Positions 3,651-25,046 of a stretch of 64,000 nucleotides of DNA are shown piece by piece. Below the pieces are notes generated by a model. It was not told the DNA's origin. It was given only the letters and a program-made list of their open reading frames with translations, and did not search any database. A program made the position numbers and the translations under genes. Source of the DNA: Acidimicrobiales bacterium (GTDB taxonomy: Bacteria > Actinomycetota > Acidimicrobiia > Acidimicrobiales > Bog-793); contig JBEKLQ010000002.1 of the NCBI GenBank assembly GCA_050010115.1, positions 46,741 to 110,740 of the forward strand. Direction: 5' to 3'. Within the stretch, counting starts at the first letter, position 1; each line of letters begins with the position of its first letter.

Positions 3651-6466
3651 CGCGTCGCCTCCACCTTCTCGAAGTTGCAGGGCACCGCCCGGTCCGACGG
3701 GATCGGCTGCCACTCGGCGGGTGTGTATTGGATGTGCCCGTAGCCGCCAGCGAACCCGATCCACTTGACCATTCCGGCCTCGAGCTCGTTGGCGCCCTTC
3801 CAATCGCGGTACTGGTGGCCGTCCCAGCCGTTGTAGGAGATGACCTGTCCGGGTTTCACCCCCGGCGAGACCTTCGCCCGGACGCACATGGACGCGATGT
3901 CGTTCCACACTCGCACGAGGTCGTCGTCGGCTACGCCCCGCTCGGCCGCGTCCTCGACGGACACCTCGACGAGCGGCTCACCGCGATGCGTCTGGAGCAT
4001 CACCGGGTTGAGCTGGTTCATGGAGTGGATGCTCCATCGGTTGTGTCCGGAGGTCATCCGGAGCGGGTGATCTCCCCCCGCCTTCGGGTTCGGCTTGTGC
4101 ACGGGGAGTGCCTCGCTCGCCTCGAGCCACCAGGGATGGTCGATGTAGAACTGCGCCCGGCGGGCGTAGGTCGGGAACGGCTGCCCGAACTCGAGGTGGC
4201 TGCGGAACGGGACGTGGGTCCGGCTCGTCTCGAAGGGCGACGCCTGCGCCAGCGCCATGGGGCTCATACCCCAACCCGTGAAACGGACCTGGCCGTCCTC
4301 GCGCAGCGTCTTGATGGTGGTGCCGTCCGGAAGCGTCTCGGCGTAGGCGCAGTCCCGGACGATCTCGTCGGCGAGCTTCTCCTCGTCGGCGAGATAGCCG
4401 TTCATCGTGTAGCGGTCCCACAGCGTCGCCGGGATGAAGCGGTTGTGTCGGGCGTTGCGGTACTCCTCGATTCCGCGGGCTGCAGCGCGCTCCGTCATGG
4501 CCCGGAGGATGACCTGGAAGATCTGCCACTCGGACTTAGCCTCTCCGGCCGGGTCGGCCGCACGATCGGAGAACGTGAGGTGCATCACGTGCGGTGTGGG
4601 AATGTGGAACCCGACCTTCTCGTAGTGCTGGGCGGCCGGCAGCACGATGTCGGAGTGGAGCCCGGTGAAGTTGAGCCGGAAGTCGATCGAGACGATCAGG
4701 TCGAACTTCGGCCACAGCTCATCGATGAGCGCTGTCTTGCCGCCGCGGGTGCGCCGCAACATGTTGCCGCCGCACTCGATCAGCACCTTCGGCGGCGTGT
4801 CCGGCCTGGGACTGTCGACACCCGCCCACCAGCCCTTCTCGAGGGCTTCGCTCACGTACTCGTCGAACGTCCGAGGCAGCGAGTCGTCGCCCCAGCCGGG
4901 CGTGTTCCAACGGTCCCGGTACCCCGCCTGCCAGTACCACCACAAGGCCATCGGCGATGCGGTCGCCGAGCCCTCGGCTTCGTCGTTGCTCAGCTGCGAG
5001 GCCTCGATCATCAGGCGGTTCAACTCGCGAACCGCGAGCTCGTCCGACATAGTCGGGTCCTCGGCTTTGAGCGACTGGATCATCGAGTCGCGCATCTCCA
5101 GGATGGCCTCGGTGCCCTCGATGCCCGGCACCGGCTTGGCGGTCGCAAGTCCCTGGCCGTCGAACATGCCGGCGCTCCATGAACGGATGCCGGTGCCGGC
5201 CTTGCCCCAGTTGCCGGTGACGGCGAGCAGCAGGCACATCGCCCGCTCGATCAGGTCGCCGTGGTAGTACTTGCACGAATTCCAGCCGAGCATGATGTTC
5301 GTCCGCCGCGCGGCGGCCTTCCGGGCGAGCATCCGCACGACGTCCGGGTGGACACCGGTGACGGGCTGCTGGTGATCGGGCGTGTAGTTGGCGTCGAGGT
5401 GCCGACGGAGCGCCTGCATGACAGGCTCCACTTCGACCGTTGAACCATCGGCGAGGGTGACCGCGTACGTGCCCTCGAGCGCCACAGGGCACCCATCGAG
5501 CAGGAGATGGCCCCGGTCGGCCTTGACGAGCCCGCGCTCCGGGTCCCAGTGGTACAGCTGGTCCTCACGCCCGGACGCGCCCTCCACGTCGGTCTCCCGG
5601 AGATACCGGCGGGTATCGGTTCGCATCAGCATCGGCAGGTCCGTCTGCTCGCGGATGAACGTCCGGTCCTCCAGGCCCTCGTCGAGGATCACCTGGACCA
5701 TCGCGAGCCCGAGCGCCGCGTCCGCAGCGGGCTCCACCGGGACGTGGTAGTCGGCGTGTATGTGCGAGGCGTTGAGGTCCGGGGAGATTGAGACGATTTC
5801 CGCCCCGTGGTAACGCGCCTCGAGCATGAAGTGGTACAGCGGGATGCGCGTGAACGCAGGGTTCATGTGCCAGACGAGGATCAGCTCCGAGTGGAACCAG
5901 TCATCGGCCGACGACACAGGACAGAACTTGCCGAACGTCTCGTGCAGCCCGATGGAGAAGTCGTTGAACGACCCGTGTAGATCGAGGATCCGGCCGCCGA
6001 TCGTGTTGAAGAAGCGATAGGTCGGTACGACAGTCGCGATCTCGGGCGTGCCTTCGTGGACGATCGTCTCAGGACCACCGGTCTCGATCGCGTCGAGCAT
6101 CGCGTCAGCGATCGTCGTCGCCGCCTCGTCCCAGCTGATGCGCTCCCATTTGCCGCTCCCCCGCTCGCCGACACGGCGGATCGGGTGCAGCAGGCGGTCC
6201 CCGTCATAGAGCTGCTGACTCCACGACGCCCCCTTGTTGCAGCCCATCGGGTTGAAGTCCGGCACACCGTCCTCAACGACGGCGTGGCGAGCGGCGGCCT
6301 CCTCCCGGACGACCCTGCCGTCTCTGACGAAGACCCGGTACAGACAGTTGCCCGGGTAGCAGTCGACGCAATGGGTCCCCCAAGCGACGCGGTCCCAGGT
6401 CCACCTTGCGCGGTAAGAATCCTCGCCTGAGCGGAACTTCTCCAGCGATCGAGCGGCGATCGGCAT
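3647..6466 (-). CDS. Molybdopterin (Mo-bisPGD) oxidoreductase catalytic alpha subunit, NarG/EbdA-type, no Tat signal
   Basis: N-terminal FS0-type motif WGTHCVDCYPGNC…NPMGC. The C-terminal molybdopterin-binding region includes RRAQFYIDHPWWLE. Start chosen at 6466, preceded by GGGGGAGGG. In-frame ATG alternatives are at 6490 and 6529. Confidence 0.9.
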   Translation of the reverse strand: MPIAARSLEKFRSGEDSYRARWTWDRVAWGTHCVDCYPGNCLYRVFVRDGRVVREEAAARHAVVEDGVPDFNPMGCNKGASWSQQLYDGDRLLHPIRRVGERGSGKWERISWDEAATTIADAMLDAIETGGPETIVHEGTPEIATVVPTYRFFNTIGGRILDLHGSFNDFSIGLHETFGKFCPVSSADDWFHSELILVWHMNPAFTRIPLYHFMLEARYHGAEIVSISPDLNASHIHADYHVPVEPAADAALGLAMVQVILDEGLEDRTFIREQTDLPMLMRTDTRRYLRETDVEGASGREDQLYHWDPERGLVKADRGHLLLDGCPVALEGTYAVTLADGSTVEVEPVMQALRRHLDANYTPDHQQPVTGVHPDVVRMLARKAAARRTNIMLGWNSCKYYHGDLIERAMCLLLAVTGNWGKAGTGIRSWSAGMFDGQGLATAKPVPGIEGTEAILEMRDSMIQSLKAEDPTMSDELAVRELNRLMIEASQLSNDEAEGSATASPMALWWYWQAGYRDRWNTPGWGDDSLPRTFDEYVSEALEKGWWAGVDSPRPDTPPKVLIECGGNMLRRTRGGKTALIDELWPKFDLIVSIDFRLNFTGLHSDIVLPAAQHYEKVGFHIPTPHVMHLTFSDRAADPAGEAKSEWQIFQVILRAMTERAAARGIEEYRNARHNRFIPATLWDRYTMNGYLADEEKLADEIVRDCAYAETLPDGTTIKTLREDGQVRFTGWGMSPMALAQASPFETSRTHVPFRSHLEFGQPFPTYARRAQFYIDHPWWLEASEALPVHKPNPKAGGDHPLRMTSGHNRWSIHSMNQLNPVMLQTHRGEPLVEVSVEDAAERGVADDDLVRVWNDIASMCVRAKVSPGVKPGQVISYNGWDGHQYRDWKGANELEAGMVKWIGFAGGYGHIQYTPAEWQPIPSDRAVPCNFEKVEATR

Positions 6467-6494
6467 CGACCCTCCCCCCAACTCCGACATATTT

Positions 6495-6511
6495 CTCGTT
6501 ACCCTAGCGAG
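6495..6511. promoter_or_regulatory. 17-bp imperfect palindrome CTCGTTACCCTAGCGAG (candidate Rrf2 operator, site A)
   Basis: Arms CTCG.TA / TA.CGAG. It matches 14 of 17 positions of the palindrome at 22230-22246. It overlaps the predicted -10 of the alpha-subunit promoter. Confidence 0.5.
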
Positions 6512-6954
6512 TAATTCCCTGTTTGACAAGAGCCTCGTGCTTCTCCCCCCGCGAGCGCGTCAGCCAGTGACATCTGGGCAAGAGCGTCTACAGCCGCATC
6601 CCGCCCGGCCAGCCACACGGCGTGGACCGCGCAGAACGGGCCGTCGCCGTCATGGCGCCGCCGGGAGTCGAGGATGCAGTTCGGCGTCGTGAGCGGGCCT
6701 CCGAGCGCTCCGACGATCTCGAGGATCGAGATCTGCTCGGGTGAGCGAGCGAGCTTGCACCCGCCTGACCGACCACGCGTGCTGGCTATGAGCCCGGCCC
6801 GGGCTAGCGCGCTCACGACCCCGGGGATGTTGCCGGCCGACACGCCCGAGCGAGCCGCCAGCTCGGCCGCGGTGAGGAGCTTGTCAGGCTGATCGGCGAG
6901 TGTGAGGAGGACGCGGATCCCGTACTGCGTTCGCCGGGCCAAGGTGAGTCTCAT
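6499..6954 (-). CDS. Rrf2-family transcriptional regulator (paralog 1, only two of the three cluster-type Cys)
   Basis: N-terminal wHTH MRLTLARRTQYGIRVLL…AAELAARSGVSAGNIPGVVSALARAGLI…GRSGGCKLAR. The Cys region reads C-x14-C-x2-H. Confidence 0.9.
   Translation of the reverse strand: MRLTLARRTQYGIRVLLTLADQPDKLLTAAELAARSGVSAGNIPGVVSALARAGLIASTRGRSGGCKLARSPEQISILEIVGALGGPLTTPNCILDSRRRHDGDGPFCAVHAVWLAGRDAAVDALAQMSLADALAGGEARGSCQTGNYSLG
6501..6529 (-). promoter_or_regulatory. Sigma-A-like promoter for the Mo-enzyme operon: -35 TTGTCA (6524-6529), 17-nt spacer, -10 TAGGGT (6501-6506)
   Basis: Read on the minus strand: TTGTCA-aacagggaattactcgc-TAGGGT. It sits within or just after the 3' end of the Rrf2 gene (stop 6499-6501) and about 35 nt upstream of the SD-preceded ATG at 6466. 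Confidence 0.5.
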
Positions 6955-6999: not shown

Positions 7000-7644
7000 A
7001 TGAAGCTCGTGTCGAGCTCTGCTTCTGCTCCTCCAGGACACCTCGCCCTCTACCGACCGCAGCAGACCTTGCTCACGATCGACGAGCGCCGGGAGATCGT
7101 GGAAGTCTTCTTCCTCTCGCACCCTGGATCCGGGCGCCACGGCCTTGGGCTCGGCCGGGCGGTCGCGGACTTCGTCGAGTGGGAGGCGTCGAGTGGGCGG
7201 CTCGACGAGGCAAGCGGCTCGCCGTGGTGGCGCGCCGTGAACGAGTCGTTCGTGCTCGACCTTCGGGCAGCGCTCGCCGCCTCCGATCCCGCCGGGGTAC
7301 GCCCGGAGGCGTCGGCGGCATGGGCCGCCTACACGACAGCCACCCACGACCTGCAACAGGCCCACTGGACCGCGCACCAGGTGTCGTTGACGAGCGCGGT
7401 GGAAGCCGCCGCGCCCCTCCTCGAGCGCGAACCGGTGGAGGAGCGGGCGTTCGCCGGCATCGTGCTCGCCCTCGTCGCCCGAGCGGCTGCGGAGAACTCG
7501 CCGACGGACACGACCGACCTCGCCCGGTCCACTCGCCGCCTCTACCCGCCCTACTACCCGATCTCGCCGCCACAGCTCCAACAGCTCACGTCGAGGCTGG
7601 GCCGGGCAGGGGTCAACGCCGCCGGTCACGACGGCACCAGGTAG
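7000..7644 (+). CDS. Hypothetical protein
   Basis: ATG start, high GC3, non-degenerate composition (214 aa). I recognised no motif. It converges on and overlaps the next gene by 19 nt. Confidence 0.5.
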   Translation: MKLVSSSASAPPGHLALYRPQQTLLTIDERREIVEVFFLSHPGSGRHGLGLGRAVADFVEWEASSGRLDEASGSPWWRAVNESFVLDLRAALAASDPAGVRPEASAAWAAYTTATHDLQQAHWTAHQVSLTSAVEAAAPLLEREPVEERAFAGIVLALVARAAAENSPTDTTDLARSTRRLYPPYYPISPPQLQQLTSRLGRAGVNAAGHDGTR

Positions 7645-8783
7645 ATCATCCCGTTCGGGTCCGACGAGGCGACCACGCCCGTCGCGAGGCGCCCGTCTGC
7701 GAGCCAGCGGAGGGGCATGTCCGCGCCGACACACAGCGACGGGCCGGCGACAGTCACCATCGCCGACTCGACGAGTTCCCACAGCGTGGAGAGCGGTGTC
7801 CCCGTCCGGGGATCGGCCGGCACCACGTGCGCGTTGGTGACCGGGATGCCCACGGACTCGTCGATGTACCAGCTGGGGTGCGATGCGAAGATTGGACCCG
7901 TCTCCGGGAGGCCGAAGACGGTCAGCGCAGGACACTCGAGCGTCCTTCCCACGCGTCGCCGGTGCTCGGAGTCGAACGGTCCGCCGACCGTCAGCACCGA
8001 TGCGCCCAAGTTTCCACGAAGTGCCTTCACTTCGCGCTTTGCCTCGTGCGTCCACGCCAGCGCGTCTGCGAGATCCGCGTACAACCAGGACGCTGACTCT
8101 CGCCGTGCGGATTCGAGCGAGCCGGGACCGGGCTCGGTCACGACCAGCGAGAGCCCGGCAAGGAGTGGCACAACGACGCCGTAGATCCCCTGCCAGGTCG
8201 AGAGCGGGAGGGCGGTGACGAAGGCACCTCCCCCGGCGGCCTGCAGCCCGAGGAAGGAACCAAGCGATATGCCGCCCGCGACGAGCGAGCGCTGGGAGAG
8301 CCACACCGTGCCGGTTGCTCCCGGTACTGCGACCGCAGCCCGGGTCAGCGCGCCGCCGCCGTTCAGTTGCTCGCCTCCGCCTCCGCCTCCGCCGTTGCCG
8401 GCCGCGTCGCTCGGCGCCGGCCGTTCAGCGCCGGCACCTCCGACCCGGACCGGCACCCCGGCAGCGAGACCCACGAGGAGCTCTACGGCCCCCTCCTCCG
8501 ATGTCGCCGCCCCGAGATCGACCCGGCCCCGCTCGCGGGCTGCGCCGGTCCGGGAGATCACCTCTGCCGACAGGGCACGCCAGGTCCAGCGCGACGCTCC
8601 GCAGACAAGCGCCACCGAGTCAGGAGTCCGCCTCGCCCACCGTGCGACCGTCAGCTCGTCGACGCGAAATGGCGGCACGCCGACGACACGGGGAACGCCC
8701 GCGGGCCAGTACCAAGACGGCGTGATCGCTATCGTCTTCGCCACGGGCTGGTACCCCCTTGGACGTCCGTCACAACAAGCCAC
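7626..8783 (-). CDS. Truncated or degenerate adenylate-forming (AMP-binding) domain protein
   Basis: Layout resembles the acyl-CoA ligase N-domain (…WTWRALSAEV…, …FGLPETGPIF…, …DGRLATGVVASSDPNGMIYLVPS*). The TSGTTG P-loop is replaced by VPGATGTVW, there is a G7 insertion, and the ORF ends where the C-terminal subdomain should begin. An alternative GTG start is at 8744. Confidence 0.55.
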   Translation of the reverse strand: MACCDGRPRGYQPVAKTIAITPSWYWPAGVPRVVGVPPFRVDELTVARWARRTPDSVALVCGASRWTWRALSAEVISRTGAARERGRVDLGAATSEEGAVELLVGLAAGVPVRVGGAGAERPAPSDAAGNGGGGGGGEQLNGGGALTRAAVAVPGATGTVWLSQRSLVAGGISLGSFLGLQAAGGGAFVTALPLSTWQGIYGVVVPLLAGLSLVVTEPGPGSLESARRESASWLYADLADALAWTHEAKREVKALRGNLGASVLTVGGPFDSEHRRRVGRTLECPALTVFGLPETGPIFASHPSWYIDESVGIPVTNAHVVPADPRTGTPLSTLWELVESAMVTVAGPSLCVGADMPLRWLADGRLATGVVASSDPNGMIYLVPS

Positions 8784-9261
8784 CTGACGGCAGCGACACA
8801 GTCAGCAACACCGCCACCAGCGCGACGGCGATGTCGGCTCTCAGCAGCACGTCCATCCGCCGGATCGCACGGCGCGTCCGTTGGCGGGCGGCCGCCAGCT
8901 CCGCGCCGGAGAGACTCGCGTCGTGACGCAGGTGCAACGCCGGGTGGGCGAGCCACGCCATCGTCATGACACCGAGGGCGAGCAAGGCCCAGCAAGCGGC
9001 ACAAGCCCAGGCAGTGCGACCGTAGGCGGACGAGAGCGTGAAGCGTGACCGGGGTAGCACCAGAGCCGACGCCCCACCGGCCACAGCCAACGACGCGAGC
9101 GCGATCCACCGGTACCGCCGCCCCATTCTCTGGCACACGACGTTCACTTGCCCGGGAGGGAGGTAGCGCTGCACGGGACGCCAAACGAGCTCCATCGCCA
9201 CACTGCCCCCGAGGTAGAGAGCCCAGGCCAGCATGAAGGCGAAGCCGAGGACGACGCGCAT
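8770..9261 (-). CDS. 4-TM membrane protein, paralog B (unknown function)
   Basis: Internal ATG at 9261 (MRVVLGFAFMLAWALYLGGSVAMELVWRP…). It is a paralog of the upstream ORF, sharing the motif Y(L/V)GGSVAME(L/F)V(W/L)RP. A 1-nt TGATG junction links it to that ORF. Confidence 0.7.
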   Translation of the reverse strand: MRVVLGFAFMLAWALYLGGSVAMELVWRPVQRYLPPGQVNVVCQRMGRRYRWIALASLAVAGGASALVLPRSRFTLSSAYGRTAWACAACWALLALGVMTMAWLAHPALHLRHDASLSGAELAAARQRTRRAIRRMDVLLRADIAVALVAVLLTVSLPSGGLL

Positions 9262-9794
9262 CAAAGAAGCCCCCCGCCGTAAGCCAAGGACGCCCCGAGC
9301 AGCACGATGAACACCGCGATGACGAGATCGACCCTGGTAATGAGCGACACCCGGTTTGCCGCCGCCCGCATGACCTCGAGCCGCTCGGCCACGCCAGCTC
9401 CTCCTGCGGGGGCGCTCGCCCGTCGAGCGAGCCGCGGCCGCAGGACGAACGTGATGATGGCGCCGTTCACCACGAGCACGGCCCACAGGACGATCATGCC
9501 GAGGAGGGTTTGCCCGTAGCTGGTGGTGAGGAACTTCATGCCGCGCAAGCTGTCCTGATCCGACAAGGAGAAGAACAGGAGCAGCCCGCTGATCGGGAAC
9601 AGCGCCAGCGCTCCCCACACCAGGACCAGGAAGCGGTCGGCGGAGCGTTGGCCGATGACTTGCGCTTGGGAGGGGGGAACGTAGGACTGGGCCGGCCGGA
9701 GTACGAATTCCATGGCAACCGACCCTCCCACGTACACGGCGACGGCGAGGAGATGGAGGTACGAGGCGAAGATCTGCATAGCGCTCGAGGTCAT
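9261..9794 (-). CDS. 4-TM membrane protein, paralog A (unknown function)
   Basis: 177 aa with four hydrophobic helices. ATGA overlap (9791-9794) with the upstream gene. Confidence 0.75.
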   Translation of the reverse strand: MTSSAMQIFASYLHLLAVAVYVGGSVAMEFVLRPAQSYVPPSQAQVIGQRSADRFLVLVWGALALFPISGLLLFFSLSDQDSLRGMKFLTTSYGQTLLGMIVLWAVLVVNGAIITFVLRPRLARRASAPAGGAGVAERLEVMRAAANRVSLITRVDLVIAVFIVLLGASLAYGGGLL

Positions 9795-11254
9795 CGTGCG
9801 GCCTCCGTGGGATCGGGCTCTCCGGGATGCCAGACGGGGAAGTGGGCGTCGATCGCCGGCGTGATCGGATAGGCGCCGCCGTCAGTTGCGTAGAACTGTC
9901 GGTAGTAAGCGGGATCGGCGTGGTGGACCTGAGCCGAGAACTTGGCGCGGACCGGGCTCACGTACGCCGGGCAGCAGCCGTATCGATCGACGATGTACTC
10001 GACCGTGCGGATCGCCGCCGCCTCGGTGCGGTCGGAGATGTACGAACGCGGGTTCTCGAGGAGCTCCCGACGGGTCGCCTCATTGAAAGGGCCGGCAGCC
10101 CCGTCGCCCCGGCTGAGCGGGGCACCGGGCTGGTAGCGGAGCTCCTTCACATACCCGATCGCGTCGGCCGCCGTCGGGAACCGGGGGGACGGGACGACGA
10201 CCGGCTCCAGGATCCCAGGGAGGCCGAGGCAAGTGACGGTGCGGGAGGGGTTACGGGTGGGATCCCGCTCGAGGAAGGCAAAACCTAAGCCGCTCGCGAC
10301 CTCCGGGTAGGCGCCGAGGAGGAGGTCATCGGCGTACGAGCCGACCGGCCAAGCCCCGAGCCCGAGCGCCTCGGCAGCGAGGCGCACGTTCTGGACGACG
10401 CAGCCGACCTGTCCGGCGTGGAGGAGCACGGCGAGCTCGTCGAACACTGGGATCGGGAAGCCGGCTTCGAGAAACCCCGGCCCGATGAACTCTTCGCACC
10501 CCGCCGGCTTCTCCGCGTCCATCAGGTAGAAGCCTGACCACTCATACGACGTGAGCAACAGGTTGAACCACTCGAGTCCGACGTCTCCGACGGGGAGGAA
10601 CCACGTACTCCCCGGCCGGTTCAGGTTGTACTGCCCTGGACCGAGCGGGTTGACGTTGTGAGTCCCCTCGGGCGCGCTGAACCACCCGACGTCCGGACGG
10701 TGTTCGCTGAGCCGCGTCCGGCCGCGACGGTACCAGTCGAGGATCTTCCAGTAGTCGCCGGTGCCGGCGATCTCGACGGGCACCGGGCTCTCCCGTACCG
10801 GCCGGTAGAGCCAGGTACCGCCGTCGTTGATCAGGAAGAGGTCAACCGAGCGATCGTTGGAGGAAGACGGAATCGTCCGGCCCGCCGACGACAGCAAGCT
10901 GGATAGGGCGCCGTGGACGGGGATGTCCGCCAGCACGATGCCATTCGGGCCGAGAGCGGCCCAGGCCACGAGCGCCTCTTCCACCTCCGACAGCGGAACC
11001 GGCAGGGACTGGGAGGCGTATGCGAGCGGGCCCTCCGGCTGGACGACACTGCGCCCGCTCGACCATTCGAATGTCTCAGCCATCCCGGTCTCCGAGCGGT
11101 AGCCGAGCCCCATGCGCCGTGTCCGCAGCGTTGAGAGCACGCTGAACAGCGGCGGCGTGGCCTCGAAAGCTCGGGCGATCTGCGCCTGCTCGGCGGCCGT
11201 GATGCCCGCGACACCTCGTTGGTCGGCGGCGGGTGGCTGATACGTGTCGGTCAT
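9791..11254 (-). CDS. Large nitroreductase-superfamily-like protein (possibly SagB/ThcOx-like), partner of the orphan Mo subunit
   Basis: 487 aa. The segment …LLHAGQVGCVVQNVRLAAEALGLGAWPVGSYADDLL… resembles the conserved nitroreductase-fold helix-strand motif, and the N-terminus has …LRTRRMGLGY…. ATGA overlap with the alpha2 stop (11251-11254). The family assignment is tentative. Confidence 0.55.
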   Translation of the reverse strand: MTDTYQPPAADQRGVAGITAAEQAQIARAFEATPPLFSVLSTLRTRRMGLGYRSETGMAETFEWSSGRSVVQPEGPLAYASQSLPVPLSEVEEALVAWAALGPNGIVLADIPVHGALSSLLSSAGRTIPSSSNDRSVDLFLINDGGTWLYRPVRESPVPVEIAGTGDYWKILDWYRRGRTRLSEHRPDVGWFSAPEGTHNVNPLGPGQYNLNRPGSTWFLPVGDVGLEWFNLLLTSYEWSGFYLMDAEKPAGCEEFIGPGFLEAGFPIPVFDELAVLLHAGQVGCVVQNVRLAAEALGLGAWPVGSYADDLLLGAYPEVASGLGFAFLERDPTRNPSRTVTCLGLPGILEPVVVPSPRFPTAADAIGYVKELRYQPGAPLSRGDGAAGPFNEATRRELLENPRSYISDRTEAAAIRTVEYIVDRYGCCPAYVSPVRAKFSAQVHHADPAYYRQFYATDGGAYPITPAIDAHFPVWHPGEPDPTEAAR

Positions 11255-14034
11255 CTGCGCCTCCGCTCGACATCGACGAGGACGGCTCGATCACTCGGGA
11301 CGGGCTGCCAGCCGAAGGGCAGATACCGCAGGTGCCCGTACCGCCCGACGAGGTGCAGCCACTTGACGAGCCCTGGCTCGATTTCGTTCGACCCACGCCA
11401 TCCGGCGAACATGTGGGGTTCGAACCCGTTGTAGGAGATCACCTGGCCGGGCCTGACGCGTCCGGCCAGCCGCGCCATCGCCCGGAATTCGCCGTGATCG
11501 TTGAAGACGCGGATCTCGTCGCCGTCGGCGATCCCCCGCCGGCCGGCGTCGGCAAGGTTGAGGATCACGAGGGGCTGGCCTCGGTGCGTCTCGAGCAGGG
11601 CCCGATTACCCATGCTCACTGAATGGATCGTCCAGCGCGAGTGGCCACTCGTGAATACGAGGGGGTAGTCACCGCCCGCTTTCGGCGGCTCCTTGTGCCG
11701 CGGAAGCGCCTCGTCCGCCTCGAGGAACCATGGGTGGTCGATGTAGAACTGGGCCCGGCGGGTCAGCGTAGGGAACGGCACGCCCCGCTCGGCGTGCCAC
11801 TGGTACGCCGTGAGCACCTTCGAGGGCGAGACGTCGGTCGCGACCGACAGACCCGGCGCGAACGCCCCGAGCCCGGTGCTGCGGACGGTACCGGTCGCCT
11901 TCAAGGTGTCCACGGTGGTACCGGGCGGGAGGGTGCCTGCCTCGACGGAGTCGCGCACCCACTCGTCGACGACCGCTTCCTCCTCGACGAACGCCCCTGC
12001 CGCCGTGTACGCATCCGCCAACCGGTCGAGCCGGCGGGTCTGGCGGCGGCCGTCCAGATACTCTGTCTGGCCCCGCTCGGCGGCGAGGCGCTCCACCCGC
12101 TCGCTGAGACGCCGGAAGATCTCCCACTCCGATTTGGACTCGCCTCTCGGCGGGACGGCGGCGTCGGAGAACCCGATGTGGAACGTGTGGGTTATGGCGT
12201 ACTGCAGGTTCGTGCGCTCGTACTGCATCACCGCGGGCAGCACGAGATCCGCATGGAGCGCGGTCGAGGACATTCGCGAGTCGATCACGATCACCTTGTC
12301 GAGCTTCGGCCACAGCTCGCGCAGCAGCGTGGAGCTGCCACCCCGGGTCCGGCGGATCGGGTTCGAACCGACAGCGAAGAACACCTGCGGCTCGACGGAG
12401 GACCCTGGCCGCGTCAGACCTCCCCACCAGCCGCGCTGCACGGCCTCGGTGAGGTACTCGTCGAAGGTGCGCCGCATCGTCGGCTCGGCCCACTCGGCCC
12501 GGTTCCACGCTTCCCGGTAGCCCCCGTGGTGGTAGTTGAAGAAGACCGGAGGAGTCGAGGTGCCACTCGCTACAGCCATCTGTAGGAGTTGGTTCCCCGC
12601 GATCTCGTCGGTGGCGTCCGGATCCCTATCCTTCACCGACGCGACGGCAGCCTCGATACCGTCGAGGAGCCTGGCCGTCTCTTCGATCCCTCCCTTGGAC
12701 TTCATGCCGAAGAGGAGGTAGCCGTCGAGTCCGGCGAGGGCGAGCCCTTGGATGCCGGTACCGGGACGGCCCCAGTTCCCCGAGAGCGCGAGGAGCAGGC
12801 ACATCGCCCGCTCCATCAGGTCGCCGTGGAAGTACTTCGGGGTATTGAAGCCTTCGAGGATCTTCGTCGGCCGGGATGCGACCAACCGGGCGACATGGCG
12901 GATCGTGTCTGGGGCGACGCCGCAGACCTCAGCCGCGCGTTCGGGCGTGTACTCCTCGAGCCTCCGGGCCAGGAGCTCGAAGACCGTCGTGACCTCGGCT
13001 TCGGAGCCGTCGACGAGCGTGACAGTCCAGGTACCGCGCAACTCCGGGCTCTGATCGATCGCCAGGCTGTCGCGGCGCGCCGGCACGAGCCCGGCACCGT
13101 CCAAGTAGTGGTAGAAGCGGTCCTCACGCTCGTCGGCGACGACGTCGTTCCCGCGGAGGAACCGCCCGGTGGCCGTCTGCACGAGCAGCGGTAGGTCGGT
13201 CTGGCTCACGACAAAACGCTCGTCCATCAGTCCCTCGTCGACGATCGTCTTGCACATCGCAAGGGCGAGAGCGGCGTCAGTGCCCGGGCGGACCGGGACG
13301 TACAGGTCCGAGAACACCGCCGAGGCGTTGACGTCCGGGGCGATCGCGACCACAGTGGCGCCGTGGTAGCGGGCCTCGCTCACGTAGTGGAAGTAAGGGA
13401 TCGACGTATAGGCGGGGTTCGAGTGCCAGAGCAGGAGCAGGCCGGCGTGGAATGTGTCGTCGACAGTGCTGGCGCACGAGAACTTTCCGAACGTGATGTG
13501 CTGACCGGTGGGCAGATCGTTGACGAGGCCGTTGGCATCGAGTGTGACGGCACCGATCAAGCCCGCGAACCGCATGAACGCTGCCTGCGTCATGAGGCCG
13601 CCCTCGACGGTCTCCTCGAAGATGATCGACTCCGGCCCTTCGAAGTCGATCGCGTCGAGCAACGCCTCAGCCACCTCCGTGAGCGCCTCGTCCCACGAGA
13701 TGATCTCCCAGGACCCGCTGCCCCGCTCGCCGACTCGCCGGAGCGGCTGCAGAACGCGGTCCTCGCCGGTCAGCTGGAGTGAGTAGGCGCTGCCCTTCTG
13801 GCACCCGAGCGGGTTCAGGTCGGGCACGCCCTGCTCGATGATGTCGAACACCCCACCCTGCTCCTCGAACAGCACGTCGCCGTCGCGGACGAAGACACGG
13901 TACGGGCAGGCAGCAAGACAGTTCAGGCAGTGCGTCCCCCAGGCCACGCGGTCCCAGGTCCAGCGTCGGCGGTAGCCGTCCTCTGTCGACGTCGCTTTGG
14001 GTGTCGCAGTCGCAGTCGCTGTCCCTATACCCAT
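11251..14034 (-). CDS. Molybdopterin (Mo-bisPGD) oxidoreductase alpha-subunit paralog (alpha2), orphan, no Tat signal
   Basis: Clear paralog of 3647-6466, sharing RWTWDRVAWGTHC, YRVFVRDG, RRVGERGSG, ISWDEA, RRAQFYIDHPW and PGQVISYNG. FS0 motif HCLNCLAAC…NPLGC. No adjacent beta, gamma or delta genes. Confidence 0.9.
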   Translation of the reverse strand: MGIGTATATATPKATSTEDGYRRRWTWDRVAWGTHCLNCLAACPYRVFVRDGDVLFEEQGGVFDIIEQGVPDLNPLGCQKGSAYSLQLTGEDRVLQPLRRVGERGSGSWEIISWDEALTEVAEALLDAIDFEGPESIIFEETVEGGLMTQAAFMRFAGLIGAVTLDANGLVNDLPTGQHITFGKFSCASTVDDTFHAGLLLLWHSNPAYTSIPYFHYVSEARYHGATVVAIAPDVNASAVFSDLYVPVRPGTDAALALAMCKTIVDEGLMDERFVVSQTDLPLLVQTATGRFLRGNDVVADEREDRFYHYLDGAGLVPARRDSLAIDQSPELRGTWTVTLVDGSEAEVTTVFELLARRLEEYTPERAAEVCGVAPDTIRHVARLVASRPTKILEGFNTPKYFHGDLMERAMCLLLALSGNWGRPGTGIQGLALAGLDGYLLFGMKSKGGIEETARLLDGIEAAVASVKDRDPDATDEIAGNQLLQMAVASGTSTPPVFFNYHHGGYREAWNRAEWAEPTMRRTFDEYLTEAVQRGWWGGLTRPGSSVEPQVFFAVGSNPIRRTRGGSSTLLRELWPKLDKVIVIDSRMSSTALHADLVLPAVMQYERTNLQYAITHTFHIGFSDAAVPPRGESKSEWEIFRRLSERVERLAAERGQTEYLDGRRQTRRLDRLADAYTAAGAFVEEEAVVDEWVRDSVEAGTLPPGTTVDTLKATGTVRSTGLGAFAPGLSVATDVSPSKVLTAYQWHAERGVPFPTLTRRAQFYIDHPWFLEADEALPRHKEPPKAGGDYPLVFTSGHSRWTIHSVSMGNRALLETHRGQPLVILNLADAGRRGIADGDEIRVFNDHGEFRAMARLAGRVRPGQVISYNGFEPHMFAGWRGSNEIEPGLVKWLHLVGRYGHLRYLPFGWQPVPSDRAVLVDVERRRR

Positions 14035-14068
14035 GGCTCCCCCTGCTGGGCGACGTGCCAGGTAAAAA

Positions 14069-14097
14069 ATCCTAGTTATTCATGCGAGAGTTGTAAA
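14069..14097 (-). promoter_or_regulatory. Candidate internal promoter in an AT-rich island: -35 TTTACA (14092-14097), 17-nt spacer, -10 TAGGAT (14069-14074)
   Basis: Minus strand reads TTTACA-actctcgcatgaataac-TAGGAT, about 35 nt upstream of the alpha2 ATG (14034). It overlaps the last codons and stop (14072-14074) of the upstream ORF. It is a conspicuously AT-rich patch in GC-rich DNA. Confidence 0.45.
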
Positions 14098-14680
14098 TAA
14101 ATAGCTCGAGCGGGCGACGGGGCATCCGGGAAGACCATGCTCGGGCAGAGCACGCCGCTGCAACAAGGCCTGTCGTGAGCAAGGCGACGAGCATGACTCG
14201 CTGTCGGCGGCGGGCGGCGTCCTCCCCGACCGCCGGCGCCGTGAGGAGGAAGCCAGCGGCCGCGAGCCGCCCCGGATGCCCGTGCGGCTCGATGCTCACG
14301 CCACCCGCCCGCCATGAAGCGAGCGGCGACTGCTGCCCGCTGCACACGTGAGCGAGCTCGAGCCACTCCCCGGCCATGCCGGGAACGGCCGCACCGGGCT
14401 CATCGTCCTCCCCGCCAGCACGGTCAGCACCGCCAGCGCGGTCAGCACCGCCAGCGCGGTCGGCGACCTTGAGCGAACGGCCGAGGAACGAGACCGTCAC
14501 CGACAAGTCATGATCGGATGCGGTCAGGCCCACGTCGCCCCTGGTCCTGGACGCGACCATGGCCCGGGCCTTCGAGTCGGCGAGGTTCTGCCGCAGGAGA
14601 TCCGCGACCATGGCGGCGAGCCCGGACGCCTGTTCGCCTCCCTCGACGGTGACCGCCGGCGTCAGATGCGGCGCCACCAC
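14072..14680 (-). CDS. SCP2-like sterol/lipid-carrier domain protein with internal (ADRAGG)3 repeat and C-terminal hydrophobic tail
   Basis: SCP2-like pattern: …GLAAMVADLLRQNLADSKARAMV…GDVGLTASDHDLSVTVSFLGRSLKVAD…GMAGEWLELAHVCSGQQSPLASWRAGGVSIE. The C-terminus carries VMLVALLTTGLVAAACSA. The start is uncertain (GTG at 14680 or ATG at 14611). The rest of the 501-aa track ORF is an antisense shadow of the next gene. Confidence 0.5.
   Translation of the reverse strand: MVAPHLTPAVTVEGGEQASGLAAMVADLLRQNLADSKARAMVASRTRGDVGLTASDHDLSVTVSFLGRSLKVADRAGGADRAGGADRAGGEDDEPGAAVPGMAGEWLELAHVCSGQQSPLASWRAGGVSIEPHGHPGRLAAAGFLLTAPAVGEDAARRRQRVMLVALLTTGLVAAACSARAWSSRMPRRPLELFIYNSRMNN
14415..14468. repeat. 18-bp tandem repeat, about 3 copies (ccagc[a/g]cggtcagcaccg)
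   Basis: Direct reading: units at 14415-14432, 14433-14450 and 14451-14468 (the third is diverged). It encodes ADRAGG x3 on the minus strand. Confidence 0.85.
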
Positions 14681-16257
14681 GGCTTCAGGCCGAGGTCGTC
14701 GGCGATCACCTGCAACGCGTTGTAGGCCGGGCCGAACGTGATGAACCCATGTGGGTGCTGGGTGGACCCTGCCAGGTAAAGAGCGTCGATCGGGGTCCGG
14801 TACTGGGAGAGCTCGGGCAGCGGCCGCTGGTCGAGCAAGTTGTCGAGGCTGATCTCGCCCATCATCCAGTCGCCCCCGACCATGTTGACCATCTTCCGGG
14901 CGATCTCGAGCGGGGTGTAGGGCGCCCAGTCCAAGATGACATCGTCGGTGATGTTCGGCGCGTACCGCCGCCATGCCCTGATGCAGCGCTCCCCGTACCA
15001 GCGGGCGATCGAGTCCCACTCCCCCTCCCCGCCGTCGGCCAGGGCAAAGGGTGCGAACTGGCGCAGCAGGCCGGTGAAGTGCCCGGCTGGCGCGTCGGTC
15101 GGATCGTAGAGCGTGTTCACCGCGGCGTTCGGGCGGGGGTCCGGGAGTAGGCCGCTTCGCACCAGCCTCCAGTCTTCGTCGAGATCCGCCGGCGACCCGT
15201 AGCCCAGGTTCACCACCCACGCCCGGTCGACGTCGGGGTCGAAGGAGGCCGCTTCGTAGGCGGGCGGAGCGGTCATCGCCAGATGCACGGAGAACAACGT
15301 CCAGTCCTTGTGCTTGACCGCCGTCTTCACGCGCTCGGCCAACTCGGGTGGCACGTCGCCGGGGTTCAGGAAGCGGAGAAAGGTCTGTTCGACGTCGACG
15401 GTCGACGCGACGAGCTTTCGCGCCACGAGCTCGGTGCCGTCCGAGAGCCGCACGCCGACCGCCCGATTCCCGTCGACCACGATGTGGTCGACCTCGGCGT
15501 CGCTGATCATGGTCCCGCCGTGCTGAGCGAGATCCCGCCACAAGGCGTGGGCGATGCGGTGCGACCCGCCGACGCAAAGGTGCCAGTTGTCGATCTTGCC
15601 GACGAGGAGCGGGAAGCCGATCGCAAGGCCTTTGACGTCGGTCGTGTAGCCGCAGATGGCGGCGTGGAAAGCAAGGTGCGCCTTGATCTTCGGGTGCTTG
15701 AAGTGCTGGTCGAGGAACTCGTCGATCGACTCTCGGCGGAGCTTCACCGACAGGAACTCGGAGCGCTCGTCGACGCCGAAGCTCGCGAGTGCCTTCGTCA
15801 GCTCCTTCACCGACATCGGAGGCTGGTACATGAGCGTGCCGAGCAGGAGATCGACGTAGCCGTGCGCCTCGAGGTGGAGACGGCGGAACGTCTCGGCGTC
15901 CTCCTCGTCGAAGCGGGCCATCGACTCCACGGTCCGCTCCAAATCGGCGTGCACGGTGAGCGCCGTCCCGTCGTCGAAGACCGAGGCCATCTGCACCTCC
16001 GGGCGGACGTACTCGGCGCCGTGGCGGCGAATCTCGAGGTCGCGCACCGGCGGGGCGAGATCGACGAAGGTGTGGTAGTTGGCATGCACGTTGTGGAGGA
16101 AGCCCGAGAGCGTGAGCTCCTCGGTGGAAAGCCCCCCACCCTCTTCATGACGGCGTTCCAGGACGACGGTGTCGAGCCCGCTCCGGGCGAGATAGGCGCC
16201 GAGCGTCAGTCCGTTGTGGCCCGCACCGACGATGATCGCGTCGTAGGTCTCACGCAT
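14662..16257 (-). CDS. CrtI/phytoene-desaturase-family FAD-dependent oxidoreductase, paralog 1
   Basis: YDAIIVGAGHNGLTLGAYLARSGLDTVVLERRHEEGGG (Rossmann GxGxxG plus acidic end). C-terminal …IDALYLAGSTQHPHG…. ATG at 16257 (MRETYD…). 8-nt overlap with the upstream SCP2 gene. Confidence 0.85.
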   Translation of the reverse strand: MRETYDAIIVGAGHNGLTLGAYLARSGLDTVVLERRHEEGGGLSTEELTLSGFLHNVHANYHTFVDLAPPVRDLEIRRHGAEYVRPEVQMASVFDDGTALTVHADLERTVESMARFDEEDAETFRRLHLEAHGYVDLLLGTLMYQPPMSVKELTKALASFGVDERSEFLSVKLRRESIDEFLDQHFKHPKIKAHLAFHAAICGYTTDVKGLAIGFPLLVGKIDNWHLCVGGSHRIAHALWRDLAQHGGTMISDAEVDHIVVDGNRAVGVRLSDGTELVARKLVASTVDVEQTFLRFLNPGDVPPELAERVKTAVKHKDWTLFSVHLAMTAPPAYEAASFDPDVDRAWVVNLGYGSPADLDEDWRLVRSGLLPDPRPNAAVNTLYDPTDAPAGHFTGLLRQFAPFALADGGEGEWDSIARWYGERCIRAWRRYAPNITDDVILDWAPYTPLEIARKMVNMVGGDWMMGEISLDNLLDQRPLPELSQYRTPIDALYLAGSTQHPHGFITFGPAYNALQVIADDLGLKPWWRRI

Positions 16258-16714
16258 TGGCTGTCTCGCACCCGAGCACGTACGGGGGGGCACCTCGTGG
16301 CCAGGTCGTCTCGATGGTTCGGTATGCCTCGAGGAGCGCCTTCACGTGGTCGGCCTGGCGCATGAGGAAGCGCATGTCTCCCCGGACCCGGATGGTCCCC
16401 TTGAGGGCGGCGTCGATCGGGTCCAACAGCCCGGCGGCGACCTCGTCAAAAGCGGCCGCCGGTCCGAGGAACCTGAAGCTCAGCTCCTGCGTCTCGTCCG
16501 GCTCGCCTTCGCGGTACCACGAGCACTGACCGTCGTCGATCTGGACGAGGAAGTGGCGCTCCCCGCCCGCTTCCACGTACGGGGACACGGCGTCGCCGAC
16601 GATGTCGACCGCGATCAGTATGGAGCCCTTCGGCACTTCTCGAAGGTTCGCCACCCTGACGTTGATCGCGGCGCGCACCGCTTCGAACCACTCCTCGGTG
16701 TAGACGTCGGCCAT
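16250..16714 (-). CDS. SCP2 sterol-binding-domain protein
   Basis: 154 aa: MADVYTEEWFEAVRAAIN…ILIAVDIVGD…HFLVQIDDGQ…FRFLGPAAAFDEVAAGLLDPIDAALKGTIRVRGDMRFLM. This is a typical SCP2 pattern. The TGATG junction at 16714 links it to the upstream gene. Confidence 0.8.
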   Translation of the reverse strand: MADVYTEEWFEAVRAAINVRVANLREVPKGSILIAVDIVGDAVSPYVEAGGERHFLVQIDDGQCSWYREGEPDETQELSFRFLGPAAAFDEVAAGLLDPIDAALKGTIRVRGDMRFLMRQADHVKALLEAYRTIETTWPRGAPPYVLGCETANA

Positions 16715-18336
16715 CAGTACGACCTCCCCTCCGCGACCGGGCTCGGCAAGCCGAGGTCTTCGGCGATGACCTTGTAGGCGTTGTAACCACAGGCCGAGTG
16801 CACGCCTCCACCCGGGTGGGACGAGGGCCCGCAGAAGTACAGGCCTCCGATCTCCGCCCGATAGCTCGAAGCCTCCGGGAACGGACGGTTCACCCCGAGC
16901 TGATCGGGGGCGAACTCTCCATTGGAGAAGTCGCCCTCCCGCATCAGGTTCTTGCGTTCGATCTGATCCGGTGTGTACAGCTTGTGAGCCATGACGTTGG
17001 CGGGGGTCATGTTCGGAGCGGACTCGCGCCAGGTAGCGAGGAACCTGTCGTTGTAACTCGCGCGAACTTCTGCCCACTCGTCGGCGGAGAGCGCGCTGGC
17101 AGGCGGAAGGAAGTACCACCCGGTCGCCGCGTGGTAGTTCGGCGGCGCCTGGGCCGCGTCCCAGATCGAGTTGACCCACGTTGCCGCTTTCGGCTCGGGG
17201 AGCTTGCCGCTGTAGGCGTCGCGAATGTAGGCGAGCATGTCCGCCGCGCTGTCGTAGCCCACGAGCGTGTAGAAACACCGGTCGATGTCGGGGTTCCAGG
17301 CGGCCGACTTGTAGGCTGGCGCCTCGTGGATGCAGAACATCGGGGTGCCGAGCACGTGGCTCGGGCCATAGCGGAACGCCTTCGCCCTCCGGACCCAACG
17401 GTCGCTCAGGTGTTCCTCACCCACCAACTCGAGCAGCGTCTGGCGGATGTCGGCATTGGACGCGACGAGCCGCTCTGCCCGGATTTCCCGGCCACCTCGC
17501 ACCCGCACCCCGACGGCGCGCTCATCCTCGACGAGGATTCGTTCCACCGCCGTGTTCTCGATGAGGTCGACCCCTTCGCGGTAGCAGACCTGTGTCATCG
17601 CCTTGGCGAGCGTGTGGGTCCCTCCCCGGCACAGCTTCCAGTTGCCGAGCGTCCACATCACATAGGTGAGGAAGCCGATCCCCAGCCCTTCCGTATCGAT
17701 CGGTAAGCCCCACTCGACGGAGCAACGGTAGAGCAGCGCCCGGACCTCCGGCGTCTCGAACAGCTCGTCGATGACGACCTTGGGGGACTTGACGGCGAAA
17801 TGGGCTCCGACACCGAGGTCACCCCAACCGAGCTCGAGGGTGGCTCCTTCGCTGTTGCGGTCGATCGGCTTCGGTGGGTTGTAGAGATCCGTCGCGACAA
17901 GTTCCTCCACCTCCACCGCCCGGCGCTTCAACTCGACGAACGTATCCGCGTCCACCTTCGAGTACGCGGCGATGCTCTCGCGTGTCCGCTCGAGGAGGTC
18001 CGGTCGGTACACGATGATCGGCGGCCGCCCGTCCGCGAACGCGATCCCGGCCTGCGCTTCGGGCATGACCGTCCGCAGTCCGACCTCCTCCAGACCGAAG
18101 TCCCGGATCATCGGCATGATGTCGAAGAACTCCATGTACTGGGCGTGCATGTTGTGCCGGAAGCCTGGCAGCACGGGCTCCTCGGTGTTCACGCCACCGC
18201 CTTCTTCGTGACGACGTTCGATGACCACTGTGGAGAGGCCCGCTCGCTGTAGGTACGCGGCAAGGCAGAGCCCGTTGTGCCCGGCCCCGATGACGACGGC
18301 GTCGTAGGTCGTCGTGATCGAAGTGGTGTCGCTCAT
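16714..18336 (-). CDS. CrtI/phytoene-desaturase-family FAD-dependent oxidoreductase, paralog 2
   Basis: YDAVVIGAGHNGLCLAAYLQRAGLSTVVIERRHEEGGG. C-terminal …IGGLYFCGPSSHPGGG…. ATG at 18336 preceded by GAAGGGA. Confidence 0.85.
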   Translation of the reverse strand: MSDTTSITTTYDAVVIGAGHNGLCLAAYLQRAGLSTVVIERRHEEGGGVNTEEPVLPGFRHNMHAQYMEFFDIMPMIRDFGLEEVGLRTVMPEAQAGIAFADGRPPIIVYRPDLLERTRESIAAYSKVDADTFVELKRRAVEVEELVATDLYNPPKPIDRNSEGATLELGWGDLGVGAHFAVKSPKVVIDELFETPEVRALLYRCSVEWGLPIDTEGLGIGFLTYVMWTLGNWKLCRGGTHTLAKAMTQVCYREGVDLIENTAVERILVEDERAVGVRVRGGREIRAERLVASNADIRQTLLELVGEEHLSDRWVRRAKAFRYGPSHVLGTPMFCIHEAPAYKSAAWNPDIDRCFYTLVGYDSAADMLAYIRDAYSGKLPEPKAATWVNSIWDAAQAPPNYHAATGWYFLPPASALSADEWAEVRASYNDRFLATWRESAPNMTPANVMAHKLYTPDQIERKNLMREGDFSNGEFAPDQLGVNRPFPEASSYRAEIGGLYFCGPSSHPGGGVHSACGYNAYKVIAEDLGLPSPVAEGRSY

Positions 18337-18347
18337 CGCACGTCCCT

Positions 18348-24234: not shown

Positions 24235-24246
24235 GTAGGTGAGACG

Positions 24247-25035: not shown

Positions 25036-25046
25036 GAGGAGCGCGC

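Follow-up and report, generated by a model that had tools for sequence, protein, structure and literature searches.

The DNA considered here is a stretch of 64,000 nucleotides from an Acidimicrobiales bacterium (assembly GCA_050010115.1, contig JBEKLQ010000002.1, positions 46,741 to 110,740), which we call the window. It carries a conserved five-gene cassette encoding alpha2, a Mo-bisPGD (molybdenum-bis(pyranopterin guanine dinucleotide)) catalytic subunit; a protein of 487 amino acids; the paired membrane proteins TM_A and TM_B; and an ANL-like protein. The cassette is widespread, strictly conserved and uncharacterised; we found no published description of it in the literature, and its mechanism we infer. 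The catalytic core is a relative of ethylbenzene dehydrogenase (EBDH) and steroid C25 dehydrogenase (S25DH), from which two defining features are missing, the twin-arginine translocation (Tat) signal and the heme ligands of the gamma subunit. Alpha2 is better read not as an orphan but as sharing the iron-sulfur (Fe-S) and chaperone subunits of a neighbouring operon. The arrangement that we favour, tentatively and at a little less than an even chance, is that the cassette belongs to a cytoplasmic Mo-hydroxylase system with several isoenzymes, in which electrons leave alpha2 and its beta subunit through the CopD-like pair TM_A/TM_B. The window is about 68% G+C, and every gene of the finding is on the minus strand. 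The cassette, from its 5' end, consists of the following genes.

11251-14034, minus strand: alpha2, Mo-bisPGD catalytic subunit of the EBDH/S25DH-like clade of type II dimethyl sulfoxide (DMSO) reductases, 927 amino acids, with PF00384 and PF01568
9791-11254, minus strand: 487-amino-acid divergent nitroreductase-superfamily protein, putative flavin mononucleotide (FMN) protein, assigned from an AlphaFold2 model and Foldseek
9261-9794, minus strand: TM_A, CopD-like four-helix membrane protein of 177 amino acids, with PF05425
8770-9261, minus strand: TM_B, paralog of TM_A (36% identity), CopD-like four-helix membrane protein of 163 amino acids
7626-8744, minus strand: ANL-like protein consisting only of the N-terminal core, about 372 amino acids, with a degenerate P-loop (PF00501, 42.5 bits)

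The stop of alpha2 overlaps the start of the 487 gene by 4 nucleotides, as does the stop of the 487 gene the start of TM_A, whereas the junction between TM_A and TM_B is TGATG, a 1-nucleotide overlap with TM_B starting at ATG 9261. An earlier note on this DNA had described ATGA coupling throughout a block of four genes. The coupling stands for the first two junctions but not for the third, and the block, whose genes all lie on the minus strand at the coordinates given in that note, has a fifth member at 7626-8744 that was overlooked.

Alpha2 contains the domains PF00384 (E 1.6e-38) and PF01568 (E 2.8e-16) and is 49% identical over its full length to alpha1, the catalytic subunit of the neighbouring operon, which bears out the earlier description of it as an alpha1 paralog and a true Mo-bisPGD subunit. 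Its closest solved relative is EbdA (PDB 2ivf_A, 700 bits). Against the model TIGR03479, alpha1 scores 845 bits and alpha2 825 bits, below the cut-off of 985, and against the EbdA equivalog model NF042978 alpha2 reaches 717 bits, below a cut-off of 2000; by these scores alpha2 is a family relative and not an equivalog of any named enzyme. The ligands of its Fe-S cluster FS0 (H35, C39, C43 and C78, in the motif H-x3-C-x3-C...C) do not vary among 67-68 orthologs, and neither does Asp173, the counterpart in the alignment of Asp223, which binds Mo in EbdA; in alpha1 the FS0 ligands and Asp190 are invariant in 39-41 orthologs. At the position of EbdA His192 both alpha1 and alpha2 have Thr in the alignment. 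To judge from these residues, alpha2 is shown to be an intact Mo/FS0 catalytic subunit, and because it has kept the FS0 ligands it should still need an Fe-S partner.

To follow the cassette through other genomes we took one genome per species, which gave 80 loci, all in metagenome-assembled genomes, and mapped the window proteins onto each. The loci come from Acidimicrobiia/Microthrixaceae, Dehalococcoidia/Anaerolineae, Thermoleophilia/Solirubrobacterales, and Alpha- and Gammaproteobacteria; most of these roughly 80 uncultured species are Acidimicrobiia, Chloroflexota or Thermoleophilia, and their habitats are soil, groundwater, sludge and deep-sea sediment. The gene order alpha2-487-TM_A-(TM_B)-ANL recurs in every one of the 80 loci with enough DNA, so that the block is syntenic in relatives, as the idea in the earlier note requires, and its conservation is far beyond chance. 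The genes for alpha2 and the 487-amino-acid protein are never apart in 68 loci from at least four phyla; they overlap in 51 of these 68, and the 487 and TM_A genes overlap in 49 of 78. The ANL-like gene is kept downstream of TM_B in nearly all loci.

The neighbouring operon, a regulator gene and an intergenic stretch are also needed in what follows.

14035-14110, minus strand: AT-rich intergenic stretch 5' of alpha2, read from the sequence
6499-6954, minus strand: Rrf2-family regulator between the cassette and the alpha1 operon (PF02082, E 1.8e-28)
3647-6529, minus strand: alpha1, paralogous catalytic subunit, with PF00384 and PF01568; start at TTG 6529 or ATG 6466
3042-3650, minus strand: gamma, EB_dh-fold subunit without a signal peptide (PF09459, 42.3 bits; TIGR03477)
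1943-3025, minus strand: beta, four-cluster Fe-S subunit, EbdB-like (TIGR03478, 461 bits; Fer4_11)
1278-1931, minus strand: delta, maturation chaperone of the NarJ/EbdD type (PF02613; TIGR03482)

The beta and delta genes of the window lie about 5 kb downstream of alpha2. We call a locus well-flanked if it has at least 9 kb on both sides of the cassette; of the 39 such loci, 34 have beta and delta no more than 10 kb away, and 28 of these have them on the strand of alpha2 and immediately upstream of it, in the order alpha1-gamma-beta-delta-alpha2-.... The gap between delta and alpha2 has a median of 16 nucleotides. The layout of the window, in which the cassette is followed by the Rrf2 gene and then by alpha1-gamma-beta-delta, occurs only in the closest Acidimicrobiia relatives. 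The operon of the gammaproteobacterial locus L074 begins after a divergent TetR gene and consists of beta, TM_B (overlapping beta), delta, alpha2, 487, TM_A and the ANL-like gene, with neither alpha1 nor gamma; this minimal unit is complete in itself, with a beta and a delta dedicated to alpha2. L003 and the alphaproteobacterial L060 and L061 have the order alpha1-beta-delta-alpha2-cassette and also have no gamma, and many loci of Chloroflexota and Gammaproteobacteria have three alphas per gamma-beta-delta set. The extra alpha lies directly 5' of alpha1 (positions 1-1972 of L001, and the first 2 kb or so of L027, L029, L034, L041, L050, L052, L057, L063, L065 and L069), and its identity to alpha1 is 44-47% in the Chloroflexota loci and 59-61% in those of Gammaproteobacteria.

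These arrangements do not agree with the earlier proposal of an orphan alpha2 that works with a flavoprotein and a membrane pair instead of Fe-S, heme and chaperone subunits: alpha2 homologs do sit with canonical beta and delta genes, and L074 provides alpha2 with its own. The alternative offered in the same note, that alpha2 borrows beta, gamma and delta from the operon next to it, agrees with these observations, and there is a published parallel: Sterolibacterium denitrificans has eight alpha paralogs, fewer beta/gamma pairs and one delta chaperone (PMC6016249, PMC7411048), and whose alpha1 was produced with beta3, gamma3 and SdhD (PMC6016249). Given this sharing, an alpha gene without adjacent beta and gamma genes is normal for the clade. 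Beta is likely the electron wire common to alpha1 and alpha2.

The system differs from EBDH in its location and in its gamma subunit. No twin-arginine or Sec signal was found on any alpha1, alpha2 or gamma ortholog. The alpha coding regions begin a few residues 5' of a conserved YRxRWxWD, with no RR motif before it, and the TIGR03479 match of alpha2 begins at model position 41. Because these signals are missing from all three subunits, the Mo-hydroxylase system is predicted to be cytoplasmic. We had considered a contrast between a cytoplasmic cassette-linked system and a periplasmic second operon and rejected it, as the alpha and gamma of the divergent EBDH-like operon in Chloroflexota also have no signals.

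The window gamma has the EB_dh fold (PF09459, cut-off 33.3 bits) and matches EbdC (2ivf_C) with 60 bits, but I104 and A189 stand where EbdC has its heme ligands M108 and K201. Of the 50 gammas that are co-linear with the cassette, 44 have lost the Lys ligand. Five of the exceptions are Solirubrobacterales loci (four of them K/K), the same loci that have no TM_B, and the sixth is an M/K gamma in L020 that is part of a second same-strand alpha-gamma-beta set. In the second, divergent EBDH-like operon of Chloroflexota, gamma keeps Met/Lys in 12 of 16 cases. These substitutions suggest that the co-linear gamma is heme-free, and thus it is in just the system that bears the cassette that the canonical way out for electrons seems to have degenerated or gone. 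With the gamma heme ligands lost and the system in the cytoplasm, electrons are likely to leave by a non-canonical exit, for which the cassette is the obvious candidate. To this extent the unusual electron-transfer architecture suspected earlier survives; the part in which alpha2 dispenses with Fe-S subunits does not, as it keeps FS0 and needs an Fe-S partner.

TM_A and TM_B are paralogs, as had been noted before (36% identity, E 2e-18; common motif YxGGSVAMExVxRP). TM_A matches PF05425 with 37.2 bits (cut-off 32.1) and, weakly, DUF2214 and DUF2269. The window TM_B reaches only 9.8 bits with PF05425, its ortholog in L001 reaches 37.3, and that in L074 matches DUF2269. The superfamily matches of the pair are CopD, DUF2214, DUF2269 and DUF4149, and TM_A has in helix 1 the H-x6-[YW]-x-G-G pattern of this group. 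The pair differs from CopD itself in being encoded by two separate four-helix genes rather than one longer chain, in standing among redox-enzyme genes rather than genes of copper homeostasis, and in having no CopC partner: no CopC gene was found in the window or the loci. The score of TM_A with the CopD equivalog model NF033808 is far below the cut-off (30 bits against 195; the match covers only positions 145-290 of 295). An AlphaFold2 model of TM_A made from database homologs has four long helices (pLDDT 84).

In 77 TM_A sequences H14, Y21, G23, G24, M28, Q43, W60, R119, P120 and D156 are invariant, and E29 is nearly so (1.00 in these 77 sequences, at least 90% in a second alignment). The conserved residues of TM_B are G16, G17, M21, E22, Q36, C41, W89, H104, P105 and M134. 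Loops 1 and 3 hold 10 Lys and Arg residues in TM_A and 13 in TM_B, as against 2 and 3 elsewhere; the positive-inside rule would therefore place the N-terminus outside and these two loops, which carry most of the invariant residues, in the cytoplasm. No histidine is common to the two proteins, as the earlier note had observed, yet His14 is invariant in TM_A and His104, placed at the cytoplasmic end of helix 3, is 93% conserved in TM_B. The two pairs of intramembrane histidines of NarI and FdnI are missing from TM_A and TM_B, which agrees with the previous conclusion that the pair is not a NarI-like anchor. A profile of TM_A found no match among PDB sequences. In the Foldseek search FdnI came up at E 0.37, short of significance, and the search neither supports nor opposes a cytochrome-b-like anchor. 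An analogy with HemJ, a four-helix, CopD-like heme-b protein with a histidine in helix 1, was dropped as evidence; UPF0093 is not listed for TM_A or TM_B by hmmscan at E <= 10.

In the 487-amino-acid protein a motif had been likened to the nitroreductase/SagB-type FMN fold. By sequence the match of the protein to PF00881 is below threshold (19.4 bits, cut-off 23.5) and limited to residues 280-310, its profile finds only weak nitroreductase matches among PDB sequences (E 0.07-2), and the SagB-type assignment is not upheld, as TIGR03605 gives 18.8 bits where 78.4 are required. No YcaO-type gene was found among the window ORFs or the called genes of related loci. By structure the fold is that of a nitroreductase: an AlphaFold2 model made from 26 homologs (pLDDT 77, pTM 0.82) has top Foldseek matches in the PDB that all belong to the nitroreductase superfamily, the best being 3hoi (E 3e-5, probability 1.0, TM-score on the target 0.53). 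Next come BT_0217 (8cqs) and Reut_A1228 (3hj9), with E between 2e-4 and 9e-4, and then the weaker matches ThcOx, McbC, BmdC and NfrA (E 0.01-0.06). An internal duplication into tandem nitroreductase domains, as in ThcOx, was considered and rejected (hhalign of the N-terminal against the C-terminal half, probability 0.1%); the protein is one domain with large insertions. Its invariant motifs are L-R44-T-R-R47-x-G-L-G, GRTxPSxxN and, in the central helix, QNxRLAAEALGLGA. Sister families read RRSRRFGLG at the first of these, and R44-T45-R46-R47 corresponds to the flavin-phosphate motif of the RRSxR type, from which FMN binding is predicted. A C-terminal HHxD...H...WH motif is invariant throughout the superfamily of 487-like proteins.

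The family of the 487-amino-acid protein itself has 176 database matches of 55-90% identity, all annotated "hypothetical". The wider superfamily comprises 553 representative clusters, and a sister family numbers at least 1500 proteins of about 420-460 amino acids, likewise all "hypothetical". Members of the sister family stand beside an acetoacetate-decarboxylase-like (ADC-like) gene of PF06314 in three of four informative contexts; these gene pairs (L084 8001-10436, L085 8001-10143 and L089 7107-9383) are unrelated to Mo enzymes. One 487-like member stands among ChsH2, thiolase and CoA-transferase genes typical of steroid side-chain degradation. P0336, a protein of 863 amino acids found among the superfamily representatives, joins a distant 487-like domain to a catalytic domain of the MpaB/Lcp (rubber oxygenase) type, a fusion that hints at action of the superfamily on isoprenoid-type substrates.

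The ANL-like protein probably starts at GTG 8744 (VAKTIAITPSWYWP, with the ribosome-binding site AAGGGGG) rather than at 8783, the start given by the ORF tool. Its PF00501 match is above the cut-off of 29.9 bits, and its profile matches adenylation domains (A-domains) of non-ribosomal peptide synthetases and MenE down to E 1e-17, whereas a single-sequence search of the PDB found nothing. Its sequence stops at the A8 hinge (...DANGMIYL), with no C-terminal subdomain and no PF13193. It keeps the A5 motif FGxPETG and has a unique invariant N-terminus, MPKTIAITPSWYWP. The A3 P-loop (T/S)SG(T/S)TGxPKG is not conserved, the corresponding region reading ...GxxGxVxHSHRSL without PKG, and the subdomain with the A10 Lys is missing. 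By these features the protein appears catalytically degenerate.

In the mechanism that we favour, alpha2, alpha1 and the further paralogs would alternately bind the shared beta. Substrate oxidation (R-H + H2O -> R-OH + 2e- + 2H+) would send electrons from Mo to FS0 and on through FS1-FS4 of beta, from which they would exit via a TM_A/TM_B heterodimer equivalent to a split CopD-like unit of eight helices. This heterodimer would serve as membrane anchor and as quinone or redox site, replacing the route from heme-b gamma to cytochrome c, with the conserved cytoplasmic loops of TM_A and TM_B docking beta. On the cytoplasmic side, the 487-amino-acid flavoprotein and its ANL-like neighbour would be attached as peripheral subunits, acting as an electron relay, in substrate handling, or both. 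The setting would be the oxygen-independent oxidation of sterol- or isoprenoid-type side chains in mostly monoderm organisms, which have no periplasm for a classical Tat-exported enzyme. A more specific form of this proposal is possible but doubtful, namely that the CopD-like pair, perhaps together with the 487-amino-acid and ANL-like proteins, is an anchor and exit of a new type that replaced heme-b gamma on the move of an EBDH/S25DH-type hydroxylase from the periplasm to the monoderm cytoplasm and that feeds the quinone pool directly from the anaerobic C-H hydroxylation of sterol or isoprenoid lipids. Heme-free anchors of the DmsC/NrfD type exist, and an anchor needs no heme.

Several observations count against an electron exit through the cassette. 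The contacts and cofactors that it invokes are putative, as is the substrate, and the assignment of the gamma heme ligands comes from pairwise alignments without a structure. His14 in helix 1 of TM_A is the only invariant ligand-capable residue within the membrane, TM_B having none, and the TM_A model has no significant Foldseek match in the PDB (the best, with E 0.2, are generic helical bundles). Overlaps of four bases occur often in high-GC operons and are no proof of a complex. The Solirubrobacterales have no TM_B and carry in its place a gene for a PaaK-like AMP-binding ligase of 647 amino acids. In 5 of the 39 well-flanked loci, four or five of them from Acidimicrobiia, there is no beta within 10 kb. 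Finally, the sister families of the 487-amino-acid protein stand alone, with neither a Mo enzyme nor a CopD gene as neighbour, which suggests an autonomous enzyme and not an electron-transfer subunit.

This last point leads to an explanation that we regard as unlikely but that deserves weight, in which alpha2 shares beta and delta as above and the four downstream genes encode no subunits, only other members of the same pathway. The 487-amino-acid protein would then be an autonomous flavin or lyase enzyme acting on the substrate or product of alpha2, for example in a desaturation or dehydration between two hydroxylations; the membrane pair would take up or present the hydrophobic substrate, with the ANL-like protein as a pseudo-enzyme that serves for binding. 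The large 487-like superfamily without Mo or CopD genes, its members beside PF06314 or among side-chain degradation genes, and the fusion to an oxygenase domain all favour this, and the superfamily-wide HHxD...H...WH points to an active site of its own. A kinase and a lyase act between two Mo-dependent hydroxylations in S. denitrificans (PMC8449060). Yet alpha2 and the 487-amino-acid protein are inseparable and mostly overlapping in 68 loci, whereas other pathway genes shuffle freely; TM_B lies between beta and delta in L074; an ATP-dependent step is unlikely for an ANL-like protein without P-loop and C-terminal domain; and if the cassette does not provide an electron exit, the Mo system has none that is known, its gamma ligands or gamma itself being lost.

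The proposal of the earlier note, in which alpha2 has no beta, gamma or delta and FS0 passes electrons to a flavin in the 487-amino-acid protein and from there to the membrane pair, draws on the tight translational coupling from alpha2 through 487 to TM_A, on the separation of the cassette from the alpha1-gamma-beta-delta transcription unit in the window and its closest relatives, and on four or five Acidimicrobiia loci without beta within 10 kb. We consider it improbable, because beta and delta adjoin the cassette in most well-flanked loci and L074 dedicates both to alpha2. Furthermore, no solved type II enzyme (NarGH, EbdAB, PcrAB) is known to send the electrons of FS0 anywhere but to FS1 of beta. 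Insertion of the Mo cofactor in this family requires the delta chaperone (PMC6016249). A very improbable alternative is that the cassette serves maturation or metal supply, with the CopD-like pair as a metal importer and the 487-amino-acid and ANL-like proteins as assembly factors specific to alpha2. The proteins of the CopD family are annotated as copper transporters, both membrane proteins have conserved Met, Glu and His residues, and the ANL-like protein looks non-catalytic, but neither CopC nor another periplasmic metal-binding partner accompanies the pair, the CopD equivalog score is low, and a delta chaperone is already present. No copper need of EBDH-type enzymes and no chaperone role of the nitroreductase fold are known.

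The water-dependent Mo hydroxylases (EBDH, S25DH and S26DH) are responsible for the only known oxygen-free hydroxylation of unactivated C-H bonds, and all that have been characterised come from proteobacteria, are exported by Tat and pass their electrons to cytochrome c. S25DH1-4 and S26DH1/2 of S. denitrificans resemble the window system as water-using type II DMSO-reductase hydroxylases with shared subunits, and also in having a CtmAB-like desaturase as partner (PMC11061730), CrtI-like genes flanking the cassette in the window. They differ from it in being periplasmic Tat substrates with a heme-b gamma and cytochrome c as acceptor (PMC7411048), where the window system has no Tat signal and has lost the gamma ligands, and four papers on them (PMC6016249, PMC7411048, PMC8449060, PMC11061730) do not mention a four-gene accessory cassette such as follows alpha2. 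EbdABCD of Aromatoleum aromaticum (2ivf) is the closest solved relative of alpha2, gamma and beta and has the same FS0 motif and Asp Mo ligand, but it is periplasmic and soluble, and EbdA His192 and EbdC Met108 and Lys201 are replaced in the window system. NarGHI, DmsABC and PsrABC provide the parallel for a beta that docks on an integral membrane partner (compare TM_B beside and overlapping beta in L074) and, in NarGHJ, for a cytoplasmic alpha without functional Tat signal that has a delta chaperone; TM_A and TM_B are unrelated to NarI or NrfD and have no paired His for two hemes. A nitroreductase fold physically paired with an A-domain core is known from BmdC-BmdB (PDB 7ly4/7ly7). The 487-amino-acid model matches BmdC and the azoline oxidases McbC and ThcOx (the SagB group), and the ANL-like profile matches the A-domain core of BmdB. 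Unlike these systems, the cassette has no YcaO/cyclodehydratase, carrier protein or peptide precursor, and both of its proteins are highly divergent, the ANL-like one without the catalytic loops.

If the cassette is the electron outlet, the family of complex iron-sulfur molybdoenzymes would gain a new type of anchor. The CopD-like superfamily, which is poorly understood, would gain a redox role, and a large branch of the nitroreductase superfamily that has been an orphan would acquire a function. A seven-gene unit like that of L074 would be a defined set for the heterologous expression of oxygen-independent sterol/isoprenoid hydroxylases, relatives of which are of interest for the synthesis of 25-hydroxyvitamin D3 (PMC6016249).

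The surroundings of the cassette point to such substrates. Directly upstream of alpha2, at 14662-22179 on the minus strand, are four CrtI/amine-oxidase-like flavoprotein paralogs of about 545-590 amino acids together with an SCP2-like gene (16250-16720), and farther along are genes for an acyl-CoA dehydrogenase (ACAD), a nitroreductase of 262 amino acids, an SCPx-type thiolase and an acyl-CoA synthetase. The flavoproteins resemble the class of the limonene dehydrogenase CtmAB and of the delta24-steroid desaturase (PMC11061730). In anaerobic stigmasterol degradation a CtmAB-like flavin delta24-desaturase feeds a Mo-dependent C26 hydroxylase, according to a 2024 study, and the closest uncharacterised homologs of this desaturase are in Acidimicrobiales, Pseudomonadales and other taxa (PMC11061730). 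From these genes and this precedent we infer that positions 1-42 kb of the window form an island for oxygen-independent oxidation of sterol or isoprenoid side chains. In 42-64 kb we found only housekeeping genes, with no phosphotransferase of the 25-hydroxysteroid-kinase type and no other sterol genes. The trio of ACAD, classical 262-amino-acid nitroreductase and SCPx-type thiolase (23044-26279, plus strand) is also found in L001 (19248-21455) and in other Chloroflexota. Both the trio and the CrtI-like genes stand beside the cassette in other phyla at 60-76% identity, which suggests that a larger island has spread by horizontal transfer. The further nitroreductase ORFs that had been pointed out in the window are bona fide (24247-25035, PF00881 E 4e-18; 31432 to about 32130, E 2.5e-22).

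The AT-rich stretch at 14035-14110 contains …CTATTTATTTACAACTCTCGCATGAATAACTAGGATTTTTTACC…, which stands out markedly from the G+C content of the genome. In this genome it probably serves the cassette as promoter or operator, possibly for the nearby Rrf2 regulator, whose gene is found at the corresponding place in L009, L010, L011, L015 and L078, the closest relatives. A small ORF that separates alpha2 from the last of the flavoprotein genes contains three tandem copies of an 18-nucleotide unit coding for (D)RAGGA (about 14405-14465, minus strand). In the Solirubrobacterales locus L072 (12038-16308), where the PaaK-like protein stands in for TM_B, the ANL-like gene is followed by a gene of the peptidase U32 family, to which the oxygen-independent hydroxylases UbiU and UbiV belong. 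Elsewhere in the window, a gene at 29966-30868 on the minus strand encodes a protein whose N-terminal half is rich in Pro, Gly and Gln and contains GYGQPAQP six times in tandem, and whose C-terminal region is hydrophobic; the matching LAVARLRR repeat ORF on the opposite strand is probably spurious.

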